In this document: positions 6,603 through 55,537 of the stretch, one piece after another
How the letters are laid out: each line of letters opens with the position of its first letter
Numbering within the stretch: position 1 is the first letter of the stretch
Assembly: GCA_022072445.1 (NCBI GenBank)
Contig: JAJVHV010000030.1
Span: forward strand, 5,971-69,970
Length of the DNA stretch: 64,000 nucleotides
From: Phycisphaerae bacterium
GTDB lineage: Bacteria > Planctomycetota > Phycisphaerae > UBA1845 > Fen-1342
Direction: 5' to 3'
Made by a program: the position numbers and the translations under genes
Notes under the pieces: generated by a model
Databases searched by the model: none
The model's input: only the letters and a program-made list of their open reading frames with translations
What the model was told of the DNA's origin: nothing

Positions 6603-9359
6603 CTAGTGTGCGACCGCTCCAATCCCATCGACGATGAGCTGGAGCGGATCGCCGATCGGCAACACGAACAGGTCGGCGTTGACCAGCTCGTTGCGCAGCG
6701 GCAGCGGGCCGGGGCCGTCGAAGTCGATCGGCGCCTCGACGTTGTGGATGCTGCCGAACACCAGGTTCAGCAGCGCCAGCGACATGAACGGGTTGACGCG
6801 CGTCGCGCCGTTCAGCGCGTTGGCACCGTTGAAGAACTCCGGCGGTGCGAAGGCGGCCAGCAGGTTGACCGTCACGTTGGGCCGGCCGAAACGGAACGCG
6901 TTCAGGCGCGGCTTGAGGTTGCGGGCCACCAGCGCGACGCCGTTCAGCAGCTTCGGCGTGCTCGCCTGCCAGTCGATGTCCTGTGGTGCCGGGAAGCCGT
7001 TGTTGTCGGCGCGGCGGTAGTAGCGTTCGACGAACGTGGAGCGCCAATCGGCCGGGTTGTGCAGGAATTCGCGGAAGTCGAAGACCGGCTCGCCGGCATC
7101 CTGGACGTTGTTGTTATTGAAATCATCGTAGTACGGCGCGCCGTCCGCATCGTAGCCCGGGTTGGCGACGTGCGTGCCGAAGAAGTGCGTCGAGGTCTCG
7201 GGCGCCAGCGTGATGCCCAGAATGGCGGTCGGCGAGATCAGGACGTTGGTCGTCTCGTCGCCTGGCGTAAGCTGCAGCGGGGCGCCGTTGGGGCTGATGA
7301 GCTGGAAGAATCCGGTGCTGTTCGAATCGGGCAGGAACATCACAAAGTACGTGCCCTCGGGGTTGTACGTCGCCACACCCTCGACAAAGTCAACCTGCAC
7401 CGGTTCGCCGTCCGGGCCGAACTGATCCATCAGCACAAAGGCGCTGAAGTTCGGCGGGTTGGTCTCCGGATCGGCCGGCTGGCTGGGATCGAAGTCGGGG
7501 TTCTGAATCCGCAACGCGGGTGCGCCCGGATAGCCCGTGAACGTCTGGGAGAACGCGTCGCCAAACGCCTCGCCATTGACCGTCTCGAACACGGATCCGT
7601 CCATGACGTCGACGATCTGGCGAATACCCTTGCGATTGTGCAGCGGCCGGCCATTGCGACGATCGATGAACTCGACGGCCTGCCCACCCGGCGTCGGGTT
7701 GGCAAATCCGAGGAAGTAGCCGCCGGTGCCGTTACTAATGAAGCGGGCGCTGCTGACGCTGCCGTTGCTGTCCTGAATGATGTCGACGGTGACCGGCGCG
7801 GCGTTGGGGTTCTGGAAGCCGTCCTCGGTGGCCAGGGCGAAAACCTGCGCGGGACCGGAGCGGCTGAACGGCAAATGCGCACGCTGCGCGCGGATGAAGC
7901 GCGCGAACTCGTCCAGGCTGGGAACGCGATCCAGCAGGATACCGGCGTAGATCTCGTCGAACGACGGCTCGGCAGTCGGCGCGAGGAAGTCAATCATCAG
8001 CTTGCGCACGTCGGCCTTGTGCTGCTCGAAGTTGCCGTCGAAGTTAAACATGCCCAGCATCTGAATCTGCTCGTGCAGCAGACCCAGGTTGACCTCGACC
8101 GGGTTGCCGTCGATGCCCAGGAACACCTCGCTGGGCGGTTCGCCCGGGCCATTCGGCCGGACGAACATATAGCGCGCCCCCATGCCGTACTCGAGGTTCA
8201 CGACGATCGCGTGCAGCCCCGACAGGTCGATCGTCTTGCCGTCGAGGAAGAGCTGCGCGAGCTGCGTCAGGATGTGCTCGGAGAAAATCGGCCCGCGGCC
8301 CGGACCGCCGCTCAGATCCTCTTCCGGGAAATTGCGGTCAAACTCGCTGATCGTGGAGTAGTAGAGATCTGGACCCGTAACCGGCACACCCTGTGCCGCG
8401 TCGTCGCCGTGCTCAAAGTGAAAATCCTGGAACGCGACCTTCTGCACCGCCGGCAGCGAACCCAGGAACGAGAGGTCGATGCCGCCCGCGTCGTCGGCGA
8501 TCACGAACCCGCCGCGCAGCATGATCTGCGCCGCGGCCACGACCACGTCGTCAACCGTGTCGGCCTGCGAAAGCTGCACGTTCGCCGCCGCCATGTCCAT
8601 CGCGCGTCGGGCGGCGTCGGGAATAACCGTGTCGAAGAGCGAAGCGAGCACGTCGTCGGCCAGACCCAGCAGCTCGTCGATCGTGATCTCCTCATCTACG
8701 CCCGAATCGCTGAAGAGATTCTCGAACGCGTCGCGGATGCGCGCGACCAGGCCAGAAAGGCTCAGCTCGAATTCGCGCGGGTCGAGGCCGACCGAGACGA
8801 GCATCGCGCGAATCTTGGCGTGAATCAGCGTGCTCAGCGGGTCGACCACGACGCCCGTCAGCGCACCGTCGGTCGAGTTCTCAGTCGCTGGAATGTTGAC
8901 GATCGTCTTCAGGTCGGCGTCCCCGTCGCCGTCAAAGTCCACGTTCAGCACGATGTCCACACCGACCGGCAGTCCGGAAACGCTGAACGACCCGTCGGTT
9001 GCGATACTGAAGCTGGGATACGGCTCGCCGTTGGCGTCGAGCAGCGCGTCGCCATTGAGATCGGTGAACCACCCGGTGGCGTTCGTTGCGATCGCGCGGG
9101 AACGGAGCTTTCGCGCGGACGGGGAATCGCCGGCGTCGCTGGTGGTGGAAACGGAGTCCACGTTACCGCTCACGGAGCCGCCAAAACTCAGCGCCGTTGA
9201 CGAAACGTCGCCCGCCGCCCCGTCGGTCGAGCCACCCGTGCCGTCCGTCGTGCCGCCCGTGCCGTCGTCATCGCCGTCGTTGTTCCCCTGCTGCGGGCAG
9301 CCGGCAAGCAGCAGGCAGACCGCGAGGGGGGTGATTGCGTGAAGCCACCATCTGGTCAT
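6603..9359 (-). CDS. large secreted lipoprotein of unknown function
   Basis: ATG at 9359 gives MTRWWLHAITPLAVCLLLAGC (lipobox), then a Gly/Asp/Thr-rich linker; 918 aa ORF with no recognisable catalytic motif. Confidence 0.7.
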   Translation of the reverse strand: MTRWWLHAITPLAVCLLLAGCPQQGNNDGDDDGTGGTTDGTGGSTDGAAGDVSSTALSFGGSVSGNVDSVSTTSDAGDSPSARKLRSRAIATNATGWFTDLNGDALLDANGEPYPSFSIATDGSFSVSGLPVGVDIVLNVDFDGDGDADLKTIVNIPATENSTDGALTGVVVDPLSTLIHAKIRAMLVSVGLDPREFELSLSGLVARIRDAFENLFSDSGVDEEITIDELLGLADDVLASLFDTVIPDAARRAMDMAAANVQLSQADTVDDVVVAAAQIMLRGGFVIADDAGGIDLSFLGSLPAVQKVAFQDFHFEHGDDAAQGVPVTGPDLYYSTISEFDRNFPEEDLSGGPGRGPIFSEHILTQLAQLFLDGKTIDLSGLHAIVVNLEYGMGARYMFVRPNGPGEPPSEVFLGIDGNPVEVNLGLLHEQIQMLGMFNFDGNFEQHKADVRKLMIDFLAPTAEPSFDEIYAGILLDRVPSLDEFARFIRAQRAHLPFSRSGPAQVFALATEDGFQNPNAAPVTVDIIQDSNGSVSSARFISNGTGGYFLGFANPTPGGQAVEFIDRRNGRPLHNRKGIRQIVDVMDGSVFETVNGEAFGDAFSQTFTGYPGAPALRIQNPDFDPSQPADPETNPPNFSAFVLMDQFGPDGEPVQVDFVEGVATYNPEGTYFVMFLPDSNSTGFFQLISPNGAPLQLTPGDETTNVLISPTAILGITLAPETSTHFFGTHVANPGYDADGAPYYDDFNNNNVQDAGEPVFDFREFLHNPADWRSTFVERYYRRADNNGFPAPQDIDWQASTPKLLNGVALVARNLKPRLNAFRFGRPNVTVNLLAAFAPPEFFNGANALNGATRVNPFMSLALLNLVFGSIHNVEAPIDFDGPGPLPLRNELVNADLFVLPIGDPLQLIVDGIGAVAH

Positions 9360-30842: not shown

Positions 30843-30938
30843 CGCTGGCGCTTCGTGCTCGGATGGGACTCCCGTTCACGCGCTGGCGCTTCGTGCTCCG
30901 ATCGCGCAGGTTCTGCATTCTGCATTCTTCATTCTGCC
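30843..30938. repeat. intergenic repeat block: 2 x 38-bp tandem repeat followed by a (TTCTGCA)4 heptamer array
   Basis: CGCTGGCGCTTCGTGCTC occurs at 30843 and 30881; heptamers ttctgca ttctgca ttcttca ttctgcc at 30911-30938. Confidence 0.85.
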
Positions 30939-51178: not shown

Positions 51179-54100
51179 CTACCTCACACTGAAATACCGC
51201 GCCGCGGGATGATGCGCGATCACCGCGCTGGTGCTCTGCTCCGGATCAAGCTGGTATTCGTCGCTGAGCGAAACGCCGATGCGCTGCGGCTCGAGCAACT
51301 GCATGAGCTTGGCCTGGTCTTCCAGGTTCGGGCAGGCCGGGTAGCCGAAGCTGAAGCGGCTGCCCTGGTAGCCCTGCTGAAACAGCTTCTGCCGCTCGCG
51401 GGCGTCGTCGCCGGCGATCCCAAGCTCCATCCGCACCTGCTTGTGCACGTATTCGGCCAGCGCCTCGGCGGTCTCGACGCCCAGGCCGTGCAGGAAGAGG
51501 TATTGCTGATACTCGTTGCGGGCGAACCACTCGCGGGCCACCTCGCTGACGCGCTGGCCGGCGGTCACCAGCGAAAGGGCGATCACGTCGGTCTCCCCGC
51601 TCTCGACCGGTCGCCAGAAGTCGGACAGACACCAGTGCGGCGGCTTCTGCTGCCGCGGGAAGGTGAAGCGGGCCACTTCACAGCCACGTTGCGACGGAGA
51701 CAAGGGCGAGCGAGAAGGTAGCCCGAATGAGCCACGGAGGGAGGGAGCGGCTCGATCGCTGGACAGGCCCGGAGAAGCGAGCGCAATCGGAGTCGATCCC
51801 GGCGCAGACGCCATCGACTCCAGTCCTTCCTTCCCCTTCGTGCCTCCGTGGCTTCCTGGCTTCGTGGCGCCTTCTCCTTTCGTGGCTTCGTGGCTTCGTG
51901 GCTTCGTGGCTGTGTCCCAGATGATCAGATCGTCGCCGTCGGAGTTGCAGGGCCAGTAGCCGTAGATGGCCTGCGGCCGGAGGATCGCCTCGCGCTCGCA
52001 ACGCGCGACCAGCTCGCGGTAGATCGGCCGCACGTCGCGGTCGATGTAGCGGCGGAAGTCATCGCCGGCGCGGCCGCGCTTGCGGAAGCCCCACTGCACC
52101 TGGAAGAGCATGATCTCGTTCATGTAGCCCAGAGCGGCCTTGAGCGGGATGTGCTCGAGCACGCGCGCACCCCAGAAGGGCGGCGCGGGAATGGCGTTGT
52201 CGATCGGGATTTCGGAGCGGCGGCGCGGCGGCGCGGCGGCGCGGGCGCGGTCAATCGCGCTGGCCGCGACGAGCGGGCCCTCGGCGACGGCGTCGTCATC
52301 CTCGGCGGTCTCGCCGATGGCGGCGAGGCCGAAGCGCTGCTCGGCGTCGAGGTCGAGGCGGCGCGGGGGTTGGGCGGCGGAGATCGACGCTGCTTCCAGG
52401 TCCGGGCGGTCCTTGCGTCCGAAGGAAACCCCTCCCTTACGGTCGGGGCTCGGCTGGGTGGCGGCGCTCGGCTGGGTGATTTCTCGTTCTTCCAACGCTT
52501 CGTCGCGTTGTCGCTTTTCCCCTTGGTCGTTTCGTCGCTCTGTCGCTTCGTCGCGTCGCCCCGTCGTCGCTTCGTCGCTTCGTCGCTTCGTCGCTGTGAT
52601 CTCCCCCATCAGCCGCAGACCCTCGAACGCGTCCTTCGCGTATGAGAGGCTTCCGGCGTAGAGCGGGCGCAGGTCGTTCTCGACGTAGCCGCGCGTCAGC
52701 GCGGCGCCGCCGAGGATGACCGGCACGCGGATGCCCTGCTCCTCGAGCACGAGCAGATCGTCGCGCATCACCAGCGTCGACTTCACCAGCAGGCCCGACA
52801 GCCCGATCGCGTCGGCGGCGTGCTCGCGCCAGGCGGCGATGACGTTGTTGATCGGCTGCTTGATGCCCAGGTTGAACACGCGGTAGCCGTTGTTGGTCAG
52901 AATGATGTCGACCAGGTTCTTGCCGATGTCGTGCACGTCGCCGCGGACGGTCGCCAGCACGATCCTGCCGCGCGACGTGTCGGCGGAGCGGTCCATGTGC
53001 GGCTCAAGCAGGGCGACGGCGGCTTTCATCGTCTCGGCGGACTTGAGCACGAAGGGGAGCTGCATCTGGCCCGAGCCGAAGAGGTCGCCGACGGTCTTCA
53101 TGCCGTCGAGCAGCAGGTTGTTGATGATGTCGAGCGGCGCGTAGGTCTGGAGCGCGACGGCGAGGTCGGCGTCGAGGCCGATTCTCTCGCCGTCGATGAT
53201 GCGGCGTTTGAGGCGCTCCTCGATGGGCAGGTCGGCGATCTTGACTTTCGTGCCGACTTGTTCGGTATCGGAGAAGAGGCCGATAAACCGAACCAGCGGG
53301 TCCTCATGTGGCACAGCCGCCCCCGGCTGTGAATGTGGCACAGCCGCCCCCGGCAGTGGCTGTGGCTGTGCCACATCGTAGATCAAATTCAGCGCCGCCT
53401 CCCAGCGCTCGTCGCTGATCTGATTGCGCGGCAGGATCTTGCTCGAATGCACGATCGCCGCGGTCAGGCCGCGCTGCCGGGCCTCGTGCAGGAACACAGA
53501 ATTGAGGACCGCGCGGGCGGCGGGGACAAGGCCGAAGCTGACGTTGCTGACGCCCAGGATCGACTGGCAGCGCGGGAAGCGCGTCATCACCGCTTCGATG
53601 CCGTCGAGCGTCTCGAGCGCCAGCCGCCGATCGGCCTCGTTGCCGGTCGTGATCGGGAATGTCAGGCAATCGAAGAAGATGTCCTCTTCGGCGACGCCGT
53701 ACTTGCGCGTGAGCAGGTCGTGAATGCGCGTGGCGATTTCGAGCTTGCGCTGCGCGGTCTTGGCCATGCTCTCGATCGGGTCTTCGTCGATCGTGAGCGC
53801 GACGACGGCGGCGCCGTATTGCCGCAGCAGCCGCGCGACGCGGGCCATCTTGACTTCGCCGTCCTCGAGGTTGACGGAGTTGACGATGCACTTGCCGCCG
53901 ATGAGCTTCAGGCCGGCTTCGATCACCTCGGGCTCGGTGCTGTCGAGCATGATGGGGACGTTGACGTCGACGGCGTAGCGGTCGGCGACGCGCGTCATGT
54001 CGGCGACGCCGTCGCGCCCGACGTAGTCGACGCACAGGTCGAGGACGTGCGCGCCTTCCTTCACCTGCTCGACGCCCACCTGCACCAGGCCCTCGATGTC

Positions 54101-55363
54101 GCCTTCCGCGAGCAGGCGTTTGAACTGCCGGCTGCCGTTGGTGTTGCTGCGCTCGCCGACGATCAGAAAGCTGTTGTCCTGGCGGTAGGGCATGGCCTGG
54201 TAAAGGCTGCTGCACGCCGCCTCACGAGATCGGCTCGGCGATGGGCCTAATGCAGAATGAAGAATGCAGAATGCAGAAGCGTCCTCCGTCGTCGAGCCGG
54301 GCTCAGGTTTCGTCGCCGGTGCGGGCGGATGCTCGGCGGACCCAGAAAGGCCGATTGCAGAGGCATCCGGCGACGAAGAACCGGTTTCTGCATTCCGCGT
54401 TCTGCATTCTGCATTGCTTTCTGCATTGCCGTGGAATCCGATCGCCTCCACCACCGCGCGCAGATGCGCCGGCGTCGTGCCGCAGCAGCCGCCGACGATC
54501 CGCACGCCGTCAACGTCGACGAACTCCTTCAGCCAGCGGGCCAGCTCGGCCGGCGCGAGCGGGAAGTGCGTACGCCCGCTGACGAGCTGCGGCAGGCCGG
54601 CGTTCGGCATCACGCTGATCGGACGCGTGCTGTTCCGCGCCAGATACCGCACGTGCTCGCTCATCTCCTGCGGCCCGGTGGCGCAGTTCAACCCGATTAC
54701 GTCGACTTCCGGATACGCCTCGATCGCCACCAGCGCGGCGGCGACGTCGGTGCCCACCAGCATCGTGCCGGTGGTCTCCATGGTTACCTGCACCATGAGC
54801 GGCAAGCGCTTGCCGGTTTTCTCGAACGCCGACAGCACGGCCCAGATCACGGCCTTGGCGTGCAGGATGTCCTGACACGTCTCGATCAGCATCGCGTCGC
54901 AGCCGCCGTCGATCAGCCCGCGGGCCTGCTCGCCGTAGCTCTCGAGCAGCCCGTCGTACGAAATCTGCCGCAGCGTCGGCAGCTTCGTCCCCGGACCGAG
55001 CGAGCCGACGACGAAGCGCGGCCGCGGCAGCGTCGAAAACGCCTCGCACGCCCGCCGCGCGATCTTCGCCGCCGCGACGTTGATCTCGTAGCAGCGGTCA
55101 GCCAGGCCGAACTCGGCCAGCACGTGCCGCATGCCGCCGAAGGTGTTGGTTTCGACCGCGTCGCAGCCGACGTCGAGAAAGCTGCGGTGAATTTGCTCGA
55201 CGGCGTCGGGGCGGGTGAGGTTCAGGACTTCGCAGCAGTTTTCGAGGCCGTTGTAGTCGCTCAGCGGCAGATCGAGCGCGTGGATGCTGGTGCCCATGGC
55301 GCCGTCGAGAAACACCACGCGCCGCCCGACGAGTTCCAGAAACGCCGATTCCGATCCGCGCAA
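51179..55363 (-). CDS. metH: cobalamin-dependent methionine synthase, 1394 aa with several in-frame low-complexity/repeat insertions
   Basis: All four modules recognisable: homocysteine-binding (GAMGTSI...GGCCGTTPAH), pterin-binding, B12-binding (DVHDIGKN) and AdoMet activation (FPRQ). About 160 aa longer than typical because of repeat insertions. Confidence 0.9.
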   Translation of the reverse strand: MRGSESAFLELVGRRVVFLDGAMGTSIHALDLPLSDYNGLENCCEVLNLTRPDAVEQIHRSFLDVGCDAVETNTFGGMRHVLAEFGLADRCYEINVAAAKIARRACEAFSTLPRPRFVVGSLGPGTKLPTLRQISYDGLLESYGEQARGLIDGGCDAMLIETCQDILHAKAVIWAVLSAFEKTGKRLPLMVQVTMETTGTMLVGTDVAAALVAIEAYPEVDVIGLNCATGPQEMSEHVRYLARNSTRPISVMPNAGLPQLVSGRTHFPLAPAELARWLKEFVDVDGVRIVGGCCGTTPAHLRAVVEAIGFHGNAESNAECRTRNAETGSSSPDASAIGLSGSAEHPPAPATKPEPGSTTEDASAFCILHSALGPSPSRSREAACSSLYQAMPYRQDNSFLIVGERSNTNGSRQFKRLLAEGDIEGLVQVGVEQVKEGAHVLDLCVDYVGRDGVADMTRVADRYAVDVNVPIMLDSTEPEVIEAGLKLIGGKCIVNSVNLEDGEVKMARVARLLRQYGAAVVALTIDEDPIESMAKTAQRKLEIATRIHDLLTRKYGVAEEDIFFDCLTFPITTGNEADRRLALETLDGIEAVMTRFPRCQSILGVSNVSFGLVPAARAVLNSVFLHEARQRGLTAAIVHSSKILPRNQISDERWEAALNLIYDVAQPQPLPGAAVPHSQPGAAVPHEDPLVRFIGLFSDTEQVGTKVKIADLPIEERLKRRIIDGERIGLDADLAVALQTYAPLDIINNLLLDGMKTVGDLFGSGQMQLPFVLKSAETMKAAVALLEPHMDRSADTSRGRIVLATVRGDVHDIGKNLVDIILTNNGYRVFNLGIKQPINNVIAAWREHAADAIGLSGLLVKSTLVMRDDLLVLEEQGIRVPVILGGAALTRGYVENDLRPLYAGSLSYAKDAFEGLRLMGEITATKRRSDEATTGRRDEATERRNDQGEKRQRDEALEEREITQPSAATQPSPDRKGGVSFGRKDRPDLEAASISAAQPPRRLDLDAEQRFGLAAIGETAEDDDAVAEGPLVAASAIDRARAAAPPRRRSEIPIDNAIPAPPFWGARVLEHIPLKAALGYMNEIMLFQVQWGFRKRGRAGDDFRRYIDRDVRPIYRELVARCEREAILRPQAIYGYWPCNSDGDDLIIWDTATKPRSHEATKGEGATKPGSHGGTKGKEGLESMASAPGSTPIALASPGLSSDRAAPSLRGSFGLPSRSPLSPSQRGCEVARFTFPRQQKPPHWCLSDFWRPVESGETDVIALSLVTAGQRVSEVAREWFARNEYQQYLFLHGLGVETAEALAEYVHKQVRMELGIAGDDARERQKLFQQGYQGSRFSFGYPACPNLEDQAKLMQLLEPQRIGVSLSDEYQLDPEQSTSAVIAHHPAARYFSVR
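53305..53375. repeat. 27-bp-period tandem duplication plus inverted partial copy inside metH
   Basis: ATGTGGCACAGCCGCCCCCGGC occurs twice (53305, 53332), then GGCTGTGCCACAT inverted at 53363; encodes PGAAVPHSQ/PGAAVPHED in MetH. Confidence 0.85.
54251..54427. repeat. heptamer-array-bounded inverted-repeat mini-element (MITE-like) inserted in frame in metH
   Basis: (TGCAGAA)4 at 54251-54278 and (TTCTGCA)n at 54386-54427 in inverted orientation, about 107 bp apart; 177 bp = 59 codons without stops in the metH frame. Confidence 0.8.
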
Positions 55364-55384: not shown

Positions 55385-55510
55385 GCCGGTGAGATTCTAT
55401 GCGAACGCCGCCCCTGCTGCCCCCTTTGACCCTTCAACCCTTCGACCCCCTGGCCCCTCGCCCCGTGAGCCCCTCGGCCCCCTCGGCCCCCTCGACCTCT
55501 CGGCCCCTTC
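55385..55510. repeat. C-rich low-complexity repeat tract in the metH/aldolase divergent intergenic region
   Basis: Repeated CCCCTCGGCC/CCCTTCGACC units. Confidence 0.6.
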
Positions 55511-55537
55511 GATTTGCTTTCCCCGCGAATCTTCATC

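Follow-up and report, generated by a model that had tools for sequence, protein, structure and literature searches.

A hairpin-forming heptanucleotide repeat element lies in frame within metH of a Phycisphaerae bacterium and probably entered the gene secondarily

How does a stretch of palindromic repeat DNA come to lie in the middle of a conserved gene while leaving its reading frame intact? This question is raised by a 177-bp segment (positions 54251-54427) of the metH gene in a 64,000-nucleotide stretch of contig JAJVHV010000030.1, which belongs to the metagenome-assembled genome (MAG) of a Phycisphaerae bacterium (GCA_022072445.1). We refer to the whole of this stretch as the window. The gene occupies 51179-55363 on the minus strand, and its open reading frame (ORF) and Pfam matches identify it as coding for a cobalamin-dependent methionine synthase of 1394 amino acids. 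The segment consists of two facing arrays of a seven-nucleotide unit, TGCAGAA, around a core, and it is probably a hairpin-forming repeat element that entered metH secondarily, as selfish or neutral DNA, and not an ancestral part of the gene. A preliminary description of the locus had recognized this arrangement and had likened the segment to a MITE (a miniature transposable element with inverted repeats). It had missed the occurrence of the same hairpin architecture in many phyla, the reoccupation of the same linker in other lineages, and three further insertions within this metH gene.

Read directly on the plus strand, positions 54251-54278 are the four heptamers TGCAGAA, TGAAGAA, TGCAGAA and TGCAGAA, and positions 54386-54427 form an interrupted array of the inverse unit (TTCTGCA TTCCGCG TTCTGCA TTCTGCA TTGCT TTCTGCA TT). 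The longest perfect TGCAGAA run in these arrays is two units. Tandem Repeats Finder (TRF) places the left array at 54249-54278, with a period of 7, 4.3 copies and 91% matches, and the right array at 54386-54427, with the same period, 6.3 copies and 72% matches. An inverted-repeat search pairs 54249-54278 with 54386-54415 as the two arms of a hairpin, each 30 nt long, 90% complementary to one another and 107 nt apart, which bears out the facing arrays of the preliminary description. On the coding strand the right array is the 5' arm and encodes NAESNAECRTRNAE, and the left array, which on the plus strand can be written as (AATGCAG)x4.3, is the 3' arm and encodes SAFCILHSAL. The core between them (54279-54385, 107 nt) encodes TGSSSPDASAIGLSGSAEHPPAPATKPEPGSTTED and contains, as had been stated, a short palindrome of its own. 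This inner palindrome spans 54309-54377, and its two perfect 11-nt arms, TTCGTCGCCGG (54309-54319) and CCGGCGACGAA (54367-54377), are separated by 47 nt. The unit had also been called AT-richer than its surroundings. That is only partly right. The left array has a guanine plus cytosine (GC) content of 37%, the right array 45% and the unit as a whole 59%, but only the arrays are AT-rich, since the core at 69% has the composition of the flanks (67-70%) and of its host (genome 67%).

Such a structure greatly exceeds what chance would give. A pattern of two TGCAGAA units with at most two mismatches occurs nine times in the window, where 0.30 occurrences are expected, and none of 100 shuffled sequences gave nine. 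A spaced inverted repeat with at least 27 matches in 30 is expected about 3e-5 times per 64 kb, and the metH hairpin is the top-scoring spaced inverted repeat of the entire window. Folding, which had been proposed as a check, gave -88 kcal/mol for the RNA (z = -5.6) and a z of -5.0 for the DNA; in each case none of 200 shuffles folded equally well. The unit TGCAGAA has no stop codon in any of its six frames, and the element has no ORF of its own. A permissive Rfam scan of 53900-54800 returned only a spurious match to the plant microRNA MIR1437 (23.7 bits, against a gathering score of 168), and a scan of 53800-54900 for promoters and terminators found none at the element.

The MetH protein is identical to NCBI entry MCG3128509.1, from a Phycisphaerae MAG. 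Its public name there, 'Glutamate mutase sigma subunit', is a misannotation, because all five MetH domains are present: PF02574 at residues 18-307, PF00809 at 403-639, PF02607 at 715-787, PF02310 at 799-916 and PF02965 extending up to residue 1393. The 177 nt correspond exactly to codons 313-371, that is, to 59 codons in frame, and their translation runs NAESNAECRTRNAE...SAFCILHSA, with ETGSSSPDASAIGLSGSAEHPPAPATK as one predicted tryptic peptide. The ORF translation and the Pfam limits together agree with the initial proposal of a 59-residue in-frame insertion between the homocysteine (Hcy) module, PF02574, which ends at residue 307, and the pterin module, PF00809, which starts at 403. When the protein is aligned to PDB entry 8G3H, a Thermus-type MetH, query residues 7-310 and 383-668 match chain residues 40-339 and 352-634, so that the linker measures 72 residues in the query against 12 in the solved structure. 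Residues 1-700 were also modelled with AlphaFold. Both barrels are predicted with confidence, and residues 311-374 receive a predicted local distance difference test (pLDDT) score of 32-44. The insert is thus predicted to be a disordered loop, in keeping with the surface loop that had been suggested. Because its state is exactly in frame and free of stops, the insert is likely to be translated and not removed from the RNA.

We took the linker length as the distance between two conserved anchors, GGCCGTT and GER.N..GS, in the 116 closest MetH orthologs (57-69% identity). This distance is 45 residues in 87 of them (75%) and 105 residues in the query, which has the longest linker; 15 orthologs (13%) have linkers of 65-105 residues, or 20-60 residues beyond the common length. 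A conserved 59-residue segment in distant relatives, which would point to an old domain linker, was looked for among these 116 proteins and is absent from them, so that the lineage-specific insertion anticipated in the preliminary description is what the alignment supports. On a neighbor-joining tree built from conserved columns, the carriers of inserts are scattered and their sisters usually have none (the pairs are P0001 and P0005, P0012 and P0023, P0021 and P0046, and P0054 with P0060 against P0084 and P0091). The closest tree neighbor of the query, P0005, is among the proteins without an insert. This distribution therefore indicates many gains. Moreover, the original linker residues, GPSPSRSREAAC, persist downstream of the element, and for this reason the entire 177 nt must be counted as extra, the core as well as the arrays.

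Most of the inserts in other orthologs also read as translated inverted arrays, and apart from this repeat nature their sequences are unrelated, with units, lengths and exact positions that vary from carrier to carrier. Inverted heptamer arrays were confirmed in the DNA of four carriers. In one metH linker (L121) the arrangement is (TGCAGAA)4, a 44-nt core and (TTCTGCA)4; in another (L123) it is (GTCAGAA)n, a core and (TTCTGAC)n; in the named strain Phycisphaerae bacterium RAS1 (L122) it is (AGTAGCG)n, a core and (CGCTACT)n; and the fourth (L124) uses the same AGTAGCG unit as RAS1. The arrays begin 9 to 14 residues after GGCCGTTP, depending on the carrier, which rules out a precise insertion site in MetH. 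The linker appears to be a region that tolerates insertions and not an exact target. The same related Phycisphaerae contain hairpins or arrays of further heptamers, at 6945-7024 and 13510-13588 of L123, 20295-20358 of L121 and 12599-12628 of L122. These comprise an intergenic (GTGACAG)4...(TGTCACG)4, a (GGGATCA)n...(GATCCC)n inside metH, a (TCGCTAC)9, and an (AGGGAAC)4.3 inside metH. Multiple families of units must therefore be present per genome.

The same linker is occupied by the same hairpin in another phylum. A MetH gene from a Prevotella sp. MAG (Bacteroidota; L001, JAZRXS010000182.1, 2382-2470) carries an in-frame (TGCAGAA)n-core-(TTCTGCA)n hairpin in its Hcy-to-pterin linker, between PF02574 (ending at residue 359) and PF00809 (starting at residue 405). 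This insert, which begins 4-5 codons earlier than the window copy, reads ...ALAEL MQNAECRMQN dstaqhn SEFCILNSAL.... When metagenomes were scanned for a TGCAGAA array 28-58 nt downstream of codons for GGCCGTTP, only three matches were returned. One (L190) is a MetH-like gene with a single in-frame TGCAGAA array in the linker and no inverted partner, and in the two others the array stands at the extreme end of a stand-alone Hcy-methyltransferase gene. The hot spot in the linker thus holds for the related Phycisphaerae compared here and is rare overall.

An exact search for (TGCAGAA)x3, run on one genome per species, matched at least 120 genome stretches. Among the matches listed are Acidobacteriota, Planctomycetota, Verrucomicrobiota, Gemmatimonadota, Bacteroidota, Bacillota, Fibrobacter, Cyanobacteria and Chloroflexota. 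Many of these stretches are built as (TGCAGAA)n, a variable core and (TTCTGCA)n, and most copies of the family lie in intergenic gaps right after stop codons. The order of the arms is strict. Among 144 loci, 15 contain adjacent inverted pairs, and these pairs run TGCAGAA then TTCTGCA in 25 cases and in the reverse order in none, with cores of 6-143 nt. The purine-rich arm is thus always 5', whichever strand is read. Two contigs (L137 and L143) hold five hairpins each, most of them close to (TGCAGAA)4-TGAAAGACTTTTGA-(TTCTGCA)4, and the palindromic flanks GGGGGTGA..GGAA and TTCCTTTCACCCCC are common to several of them. Every hairpin of L137 directly follows an ORF end, in successive intergenic gaps, and so do most of those in L143. 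In most bacterial genomes, heptamers outnumber the other long simple repeats (PMC4679880), and what distinguishes the present family is its polar inverted pairing, not the existence of arrays. A literature search on the text of the repeat found no published description of a TGCAGAA repeat.

Genes other than metH have also received such arrays. Of 164 arrays in the genome loci, 38 fall within stop-free ORFs of at least 500 amino acids, and Pfam matches confirm in-frame TGCAGAA arrays in the Prevotella MetH, PheT, PriA, UvrA, a P-type ATPase and a squalene-hopene cyclase. The last five come from different phyla (L101 for PheT, L021 for the Fibrobacter PriA, then L077, L090 and L055) and display the peptides NAECRMQ and FCILHSA. 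The array stands between Pfam domains in PriA and UvrA and within a domain match in PheT, the ATPase and the cyclase. When a synthetic peptide of the form (NAECRMQ)n...(SAFCILH)n was compared with 5.8 billion proteins, it retrieved only short hypothetical ORFs made of arrays, and no host family. In-frame repetitive extragenic palindromic sequences (REPs) and REP dimers that add 20-82 amino acids to conserved genes, among them uvrA and tRNA synthetases, have been described in Opitutus terrae, Rickettsia and others (PMC3733652). In-frame palindromic insertion is therefore an already known kind of event.

Some TGCAGAA arrays flank a gene. Four PF05635 genes were found in the 144 array-selected loci, and each of them immediately adjoins TGCAGAA arrays (L106, L048, L117 and L068, the last from an Oscillospiraceae sequence with 36% GC). 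In L106 two arrays bracket a 118-aa ORF that matches PF05635, the 23S rRNA intervening-sequence protein, with E = 1e-17. Among the 120 homologs closest to the L048 protein, the majority begin with MQNAE, MQNEE or a variant differing in one or two residues, and MQNAE is encoded by ATG CAG AAT GCA GAA, which is two TGCAGAA units. The order of array, PF05635 gene and inverted array was seen in DNA at L193 and L196 (1480-1900 in each) and at L201 and L202 (1480-1930). The layout in L193 and L196 is ...GGAAGGTAGAAGGAAGA ATGCAGAATGCAGA, the gene, and TGA TTTCTGCATTTTTCATTCTGCCTTCTGCC, squeezed into gaps of 8 and 30 nt that separate two host genes. In L201 and L202 (GCA_018402585.1) the cassette sits exactly between the genes for the N- and C-terminal halves of a split transketolase. 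These two loci come from one assembly and hold the same cassette with different downstream neighbors.

Association of this gene family with inverted arrays extends to other units. In a sample of viral contigs chosen by protein pattern only (L203-L212, with the match at 601-930 plus flanks), four of eight distinct loci have a PF05635 gene between inverted arrays of other heptamers, and two more have upstream repeats; the units are GATTGCG, CAATTGA, AGTAATG / (CTCATTA)8 and GTTATTA. In L048, moreover, hairpins without an ORF and a cassette occur on one contig with common flanks, GGGAGTAAA immediately before (TGCAGAA)n and TTTACTCCCC immediately after (TTCTGCA)n. No description of array-flanked cassettes was found in the literature on PF05635, 'four helix bundle' proteins or heptamers. 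The founding members of PF05635 are ORFs within rRNA intervening sequences (IVSs). The family shares homology with Avd, a protein of diversity-generating retroelements (PMC10053308).

These observations lead us to a tentative suggestion, which we hold to be possible and rather less than probable. The ORF-less heptamer-arm hairpins, the metH copy included, might be miniature derivatives of a selfish cassette spread across phyla, a PF05635 gene between inverted heptamer arrays, of the rRNA IVS class. The arrays would then be cis-acting sites of an undescribed mechanism of mobility or maintenance, perhaps with participation of the Avd-like protein. If the hairpins derive from such a cassette, a strict arm polarity such as the observed 25 to 0 is to be expected. 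Set against it is a six-frame search of the metH core with a 124-sequence PF05635 profile, which gave no remnant (best E = 0.8). In addition, across 214 sequences no PF05635 gene was found in the window, in the MetH ortholog loci or in the hairpin-rich viral contigs L137 and L143 (of which 12-15 kb was sampled). Because the core holds no such remnant, the metH copy is connected to PF05635 only through a shared unit, polarity and architecture.

The 177-bp element is not the only repeat in this gene. Three further in-frame repeat insertions are present in metH, all at domain boundaries or in loops. The second, at 53306-53376 on the boundary between the pterin domain and the B12 cap, is a 27-mer repeated 2.3 times that encodes PGAAVPH twice and holds a 13-nt perfect palindrome, ATGTGGCACAGCC / GGCTGTGCCACAT. 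The third, at about 52440-52600 in the linker between the B12 domain and the activation domain, combines an octamer array, (CGCTTCGT)x12.5, with an 18-mer repeated 1.9 times. On the coding strand its unit is GCGACGAA, it encodes a peptide of the RRSDEAT type, and no inverted partner was seen for it. The arms of the inner palindrome of the 177-bp element resemble one unit of this GCGACGAA octamer (array at 52496-52595). The fourth, at 51679-51914 in a loop of the activation domain, consists of degenerate inverted octamer arrays, CCACGAAG / CTTCGTGG, with the A-rich arm 5', and encodes TKPRSHEATKG ... SLRGSFGLPS. Both octamers, CCACGAAG and GCGACGAA, lack stop codons in every one of the six frames. 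In the other genes of the window we found neither a spaced inverted repeat nor a short-unit array comparable to these.

The only other TGCAGAA array of the window lies on the minus strand at 30843-30937, 23 kb from metH, in the intergenic gap between a Band-7 stop codon and the start of a gene for a zinc-ribbon protein. It comprises (TGCAGAA)x4 at 30911-30937 and, after it, GAGCACGAAGCGCCAGCG in two copies (30881-30898 and 30843-30860). The same composite, (TGCAGAA)n ... GGGAGTCNCATCCGAGCACGAAGCGCCAGCGAGTG, occurs at 1230-1310 of an unrelated metagenome contig with 69% GC (L192, WBZY01033455.1), at the end of an Hcy-methyltransferase gene, and the second, dispersed repeat of this composite has a CTTCGTG core in common with the metH octamers. 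In the intergenic region that separates metH from a divergently oriented class II aldolase gene, about nine copies of a 9-mer, CCCCTCGGC, occupy 55438-55511, immediately upstream of where metH starts. This array is G-rich on the metH strand (GCCGAGGGG) and could form G-quadruplexes. Elsewhere in the window, at 68-2992, a CHASE2-adenylate/guanylate cyclase has a CHASE2 match spanning residues 62-612, over a profile of 257 positions, which suggests a large insertion within this sensor domain.

How would an element of this kind have entered metH and remained there? It may have arrived by copy-and-insert or by recombination from another copy, through some trans-acting activity. Slippage and point mutation would later have produced the imperfect arrays seen today, and such decay would lower the risk of frameshifting by slippage. 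Once translated, the element would form a low-complexity loop of about 60 residues from which MetH need not gain anything. Selection would act merely as a filter, retaining the element only where its frame, its lack of stops and its position make it harmless. The metH copy would persist because TGCAGAA is stop-free in six frames, because the element is exactly 59 codons long, and because the flexible linker between the Hcy and pterin domains lets some 60 disordered residues loop out.

Several points weigh against secondary entry. That the insert is translated, and does no harm, is a reading of the sequence. The flanks of the element, ...GATGGGCCT on one side and GCCGTGGAATCC on the other, have no direct repeat in common. 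A target-site duplication was sought in them and none was seen, and the palindrome extends into them only as a weak 9-nt match (89%) that we take as chance. No second copy of the 107-nt core was found in the window or in the other sequences compared, and the cores are unlike between most copies; movement of the whole unit is therefore something that we infer. Our count of copies in the host genome covers the 64-kb window only, and none of the 30 window ORFs scanned encodes a transposase, a RAYT or a PF05635 protein; where a Pfam match was obtained, the gene is of an ordinary chromosomal kind. The wide occurrence of arrays is itself weak evidence of a common element, because control heptamers also form them. 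In viral contigs, the shuffled unit (TGACGAA)x3 marks 30 stretches and (TGCAGAA)x3 marks 24, which rules out TGCAGAA as a uniquely widespread unit; two other control units mark five and six.

An origin in place must be weighed, in which a heptamer in the linker expanded by replication slippage and was then duplicated in inverted orientation by template switching. The element would never have moved, and its resemblance to distant copies would be convergence. The commonness of heptamer arrays of many sequences (controls of 5 to 30 stretches in viral contigs; PMC4679880), the unrelated cores of most copies and the lack of a visible target duplication all fit this account. It does not readily explain why one unit, one architecture and a strict 25-to-0 polarity recur in 15 loci of different phyla, why most of the L137 and L143 copies are near-identical with similar loops and in several cases common flanks, or why the L048 hairpins share their flanks with a gene cassette on the same contig. 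The persistence of GPSPSRSREAAC downstream, which makes the core as well as the arrays extra, and the presence of a second TGCAGAA array 23 kb away in the window argue in the same direction, and we consider an origin in place unlikely. Somewhat less likely still is that the hairpin or loop was selected because it helps, for example by pausing ribosomes between domains, by providing an RNase III site that tunes metH mRNA, or by lengthening the linker. The very stable RNA fold (-88 kcal/mol, z = -5.6) would suit such a role, as would the recurrence of insertions in the same linker of 13% of related MetH proteins, the hairpin in that of Prevotella, and the concentration of four insertions in metH with none comparable in other genes of the window. 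Nevertheless, 75% of orthologs have no insert, the carriers differ in unit, length and exact position, and the same arrays occur in unrelated genes and mostly in intergenic DNA. The peptide is dictated by the DNA repeat and predicted to be disordered, and there is neither a match to an Rfam family nor a terminator-like site.

Two remaining accounts have little in their favor. The source is a MAG, and palindromic repeats can mislead short-read assemblers, so that an assembly artefact deserves mention. An artefact would hardly keep the frame exactly, over 59 codons, in an ORF of 1394 aa, nor would it explain the same architecture in the same linker of Phycisphaerae bacterium RAS1 and in many assemblies from different projects; we regard this account as very improbable. 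An ancient domain linker, lost by most lineages, would account for the fact that several orthologs have something at this position. This idea is effectively refuted by the 45-residue baseline in 87 of 116 orthologs, by the scattering of carriers among sisters without an insert, by insert sequences that are unrelated save for their repeat nature, and by the 12-residue link in Thermus-type MetH structures.

If the 177-bp segment is indeed a secondarily acquired element, then the metH insert alone adds a further case of selfish palindromic DNA surviving within an essential gene, where it is in frame, free of stops and placed in a flexible linker. It also carries a warning for annotation, in that low-complexity loops of the NAECRMQ or FCILHSA type in conserved proteins are repeat DNA and not protein features. 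Three aspects go further than this. Distant phyla have the same polar hairpin, made from one 7-nt unit. A single MetH linker has been struck repeatedly in separate lineages, in parallel to the reuse of a few 23S rRNA helices by IVSs. Finally, PF05635 genes lie between inverted heptamer arrays, which gives a testable handle on two old puzzles, the nature of the heptanucleotide repeats of bacteria and the function of the stand-alone Avd-like 'four helix bundle' proteins.

With which known systems, then, is the metH element best compared? Like MITEs, it is small, has inverted ends and lacks coding capacity. The MITE label as given is nonetheless not supported. No duplication of a target site is visible, none of the 30 scanned ORFs of the window encodes a transposase, and the arms are tandem heptamers and not unique terminal repeats. 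The internal sequence differs between most hairpins of the family and is conserved in L137 and L143. In this respect those two contigs bring to mind REPINs, which consist of two inverted REPs that form a hairpin and are mobilised by RAYT (Bertels and Rainey 2011, PMC3116915). Heptamer hairpins resemble REPINs in having inverted units around a spacer, in lying just downstream of genes and in reaching many near-identical copies (L137 and L143), and on this analogy the hairpins of L137 and L143 appear to behave as REP or REPIN elements. They differ in that their spacers, of 6-143 nt, are for the most part unrelated to one another, and in that the metH copy itself is within a gene. The Pfam scan of window ORFs found no RAYT, and an association of heptamer hairpins with RAYT was not specifically tested.

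Both metH arrays also contain at least three head-to-tail copies of a 7-nt unit (4.3 and 6.3 by TRF) and are heptanucleotide repeats in that sense. They can be compared with the short tandemly repeated repetitive (STRR) sequences of cyanobacteria and with TAACTGA, arrays of which are found in Beggiatoaceae, Cyanobacteria and Bacteroidetes (MacGregor 2015, PMC4679880). These repeats and TGCAGAA alike are tandem 7-nt arrays, mostly intergenic, with the same unit in distant phyla and no known route of transfer. However, TAACTGA forms direct arrays, with one inverted pair among 170 sets (PMC4679880), whereas TGCAGAA commonly forms inverted pairs. Moreover, TAACTGA includes stop codons and, in one orientation, is kept out of ORFs, whereas TGCAGAA is stop-free in six frames.

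Intervening sequences of 23S rRNA are said to have been treated by Ralph and McClelland in 1993. They are stem-loops, regarded as selfish, with terminal inverted repeats of ~28 bp that occupy the same few helices in scattered lineages (PMC4990558). In Coxiella the stem of the IVS measures 28 bp (Warrier et al. 2016, PMC4990558). The metH element shares with them a stem of ~28-30 bp, a sporadic distribution among lineages, and the repeated use of permissive sites in a conserved host molecule. The host in this case is a protein-coding gene, and the element would be translated by passing ribosomes and not excised by RNase III. In contrast to IVSs that carry an S23p ORF, the metH copy has no ORF and its core no similarity to PF05635.

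A close likeness is to the Rickettsia palindromic elements (RPEs), which Ogata et al. reportedly found in 2000 to be inserted within genes. RPEs are AT-rich, are not known outside Rickettsia and are not known to be related to TGCAGAA arrays. In their behavior, however, RPEs and intragenic REPs are much like the metH element: they are short palindromes that are usually extragenic and are also found in frame within conserved genes (PMC3733652). UvrA and tRNA synthetases serve as hosts for both intragenic REPs and TGCAGAA arrays. REP palindromes have a GTAG or CGTC tetranucleotide tag at one end (PMC3733652), whereas the TGCAGAA arms have neither; CGTC is found only in the inner palindrome, TTCGTCGCCGG, and GTAG is contained in the AGTAGCG unit seen in other orthologs. 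Tandem 7-nt arrays form the arms here, in place of a unique palindrome, and the unit spans phyla rather than a single species. The element nevertheless lies in frame, in a conserved gene, is absent from most orthologs and occupies a site tolerant of extra residues, as RPEs do, and the same interpretation applies to both, namely selfish DNA kept only at permissive sites. The metH element is thus an in-frame intragenic palindromic repeat of the kind represented by RPEs and intragenic REPs, and it behaves in the manner of IVSs.

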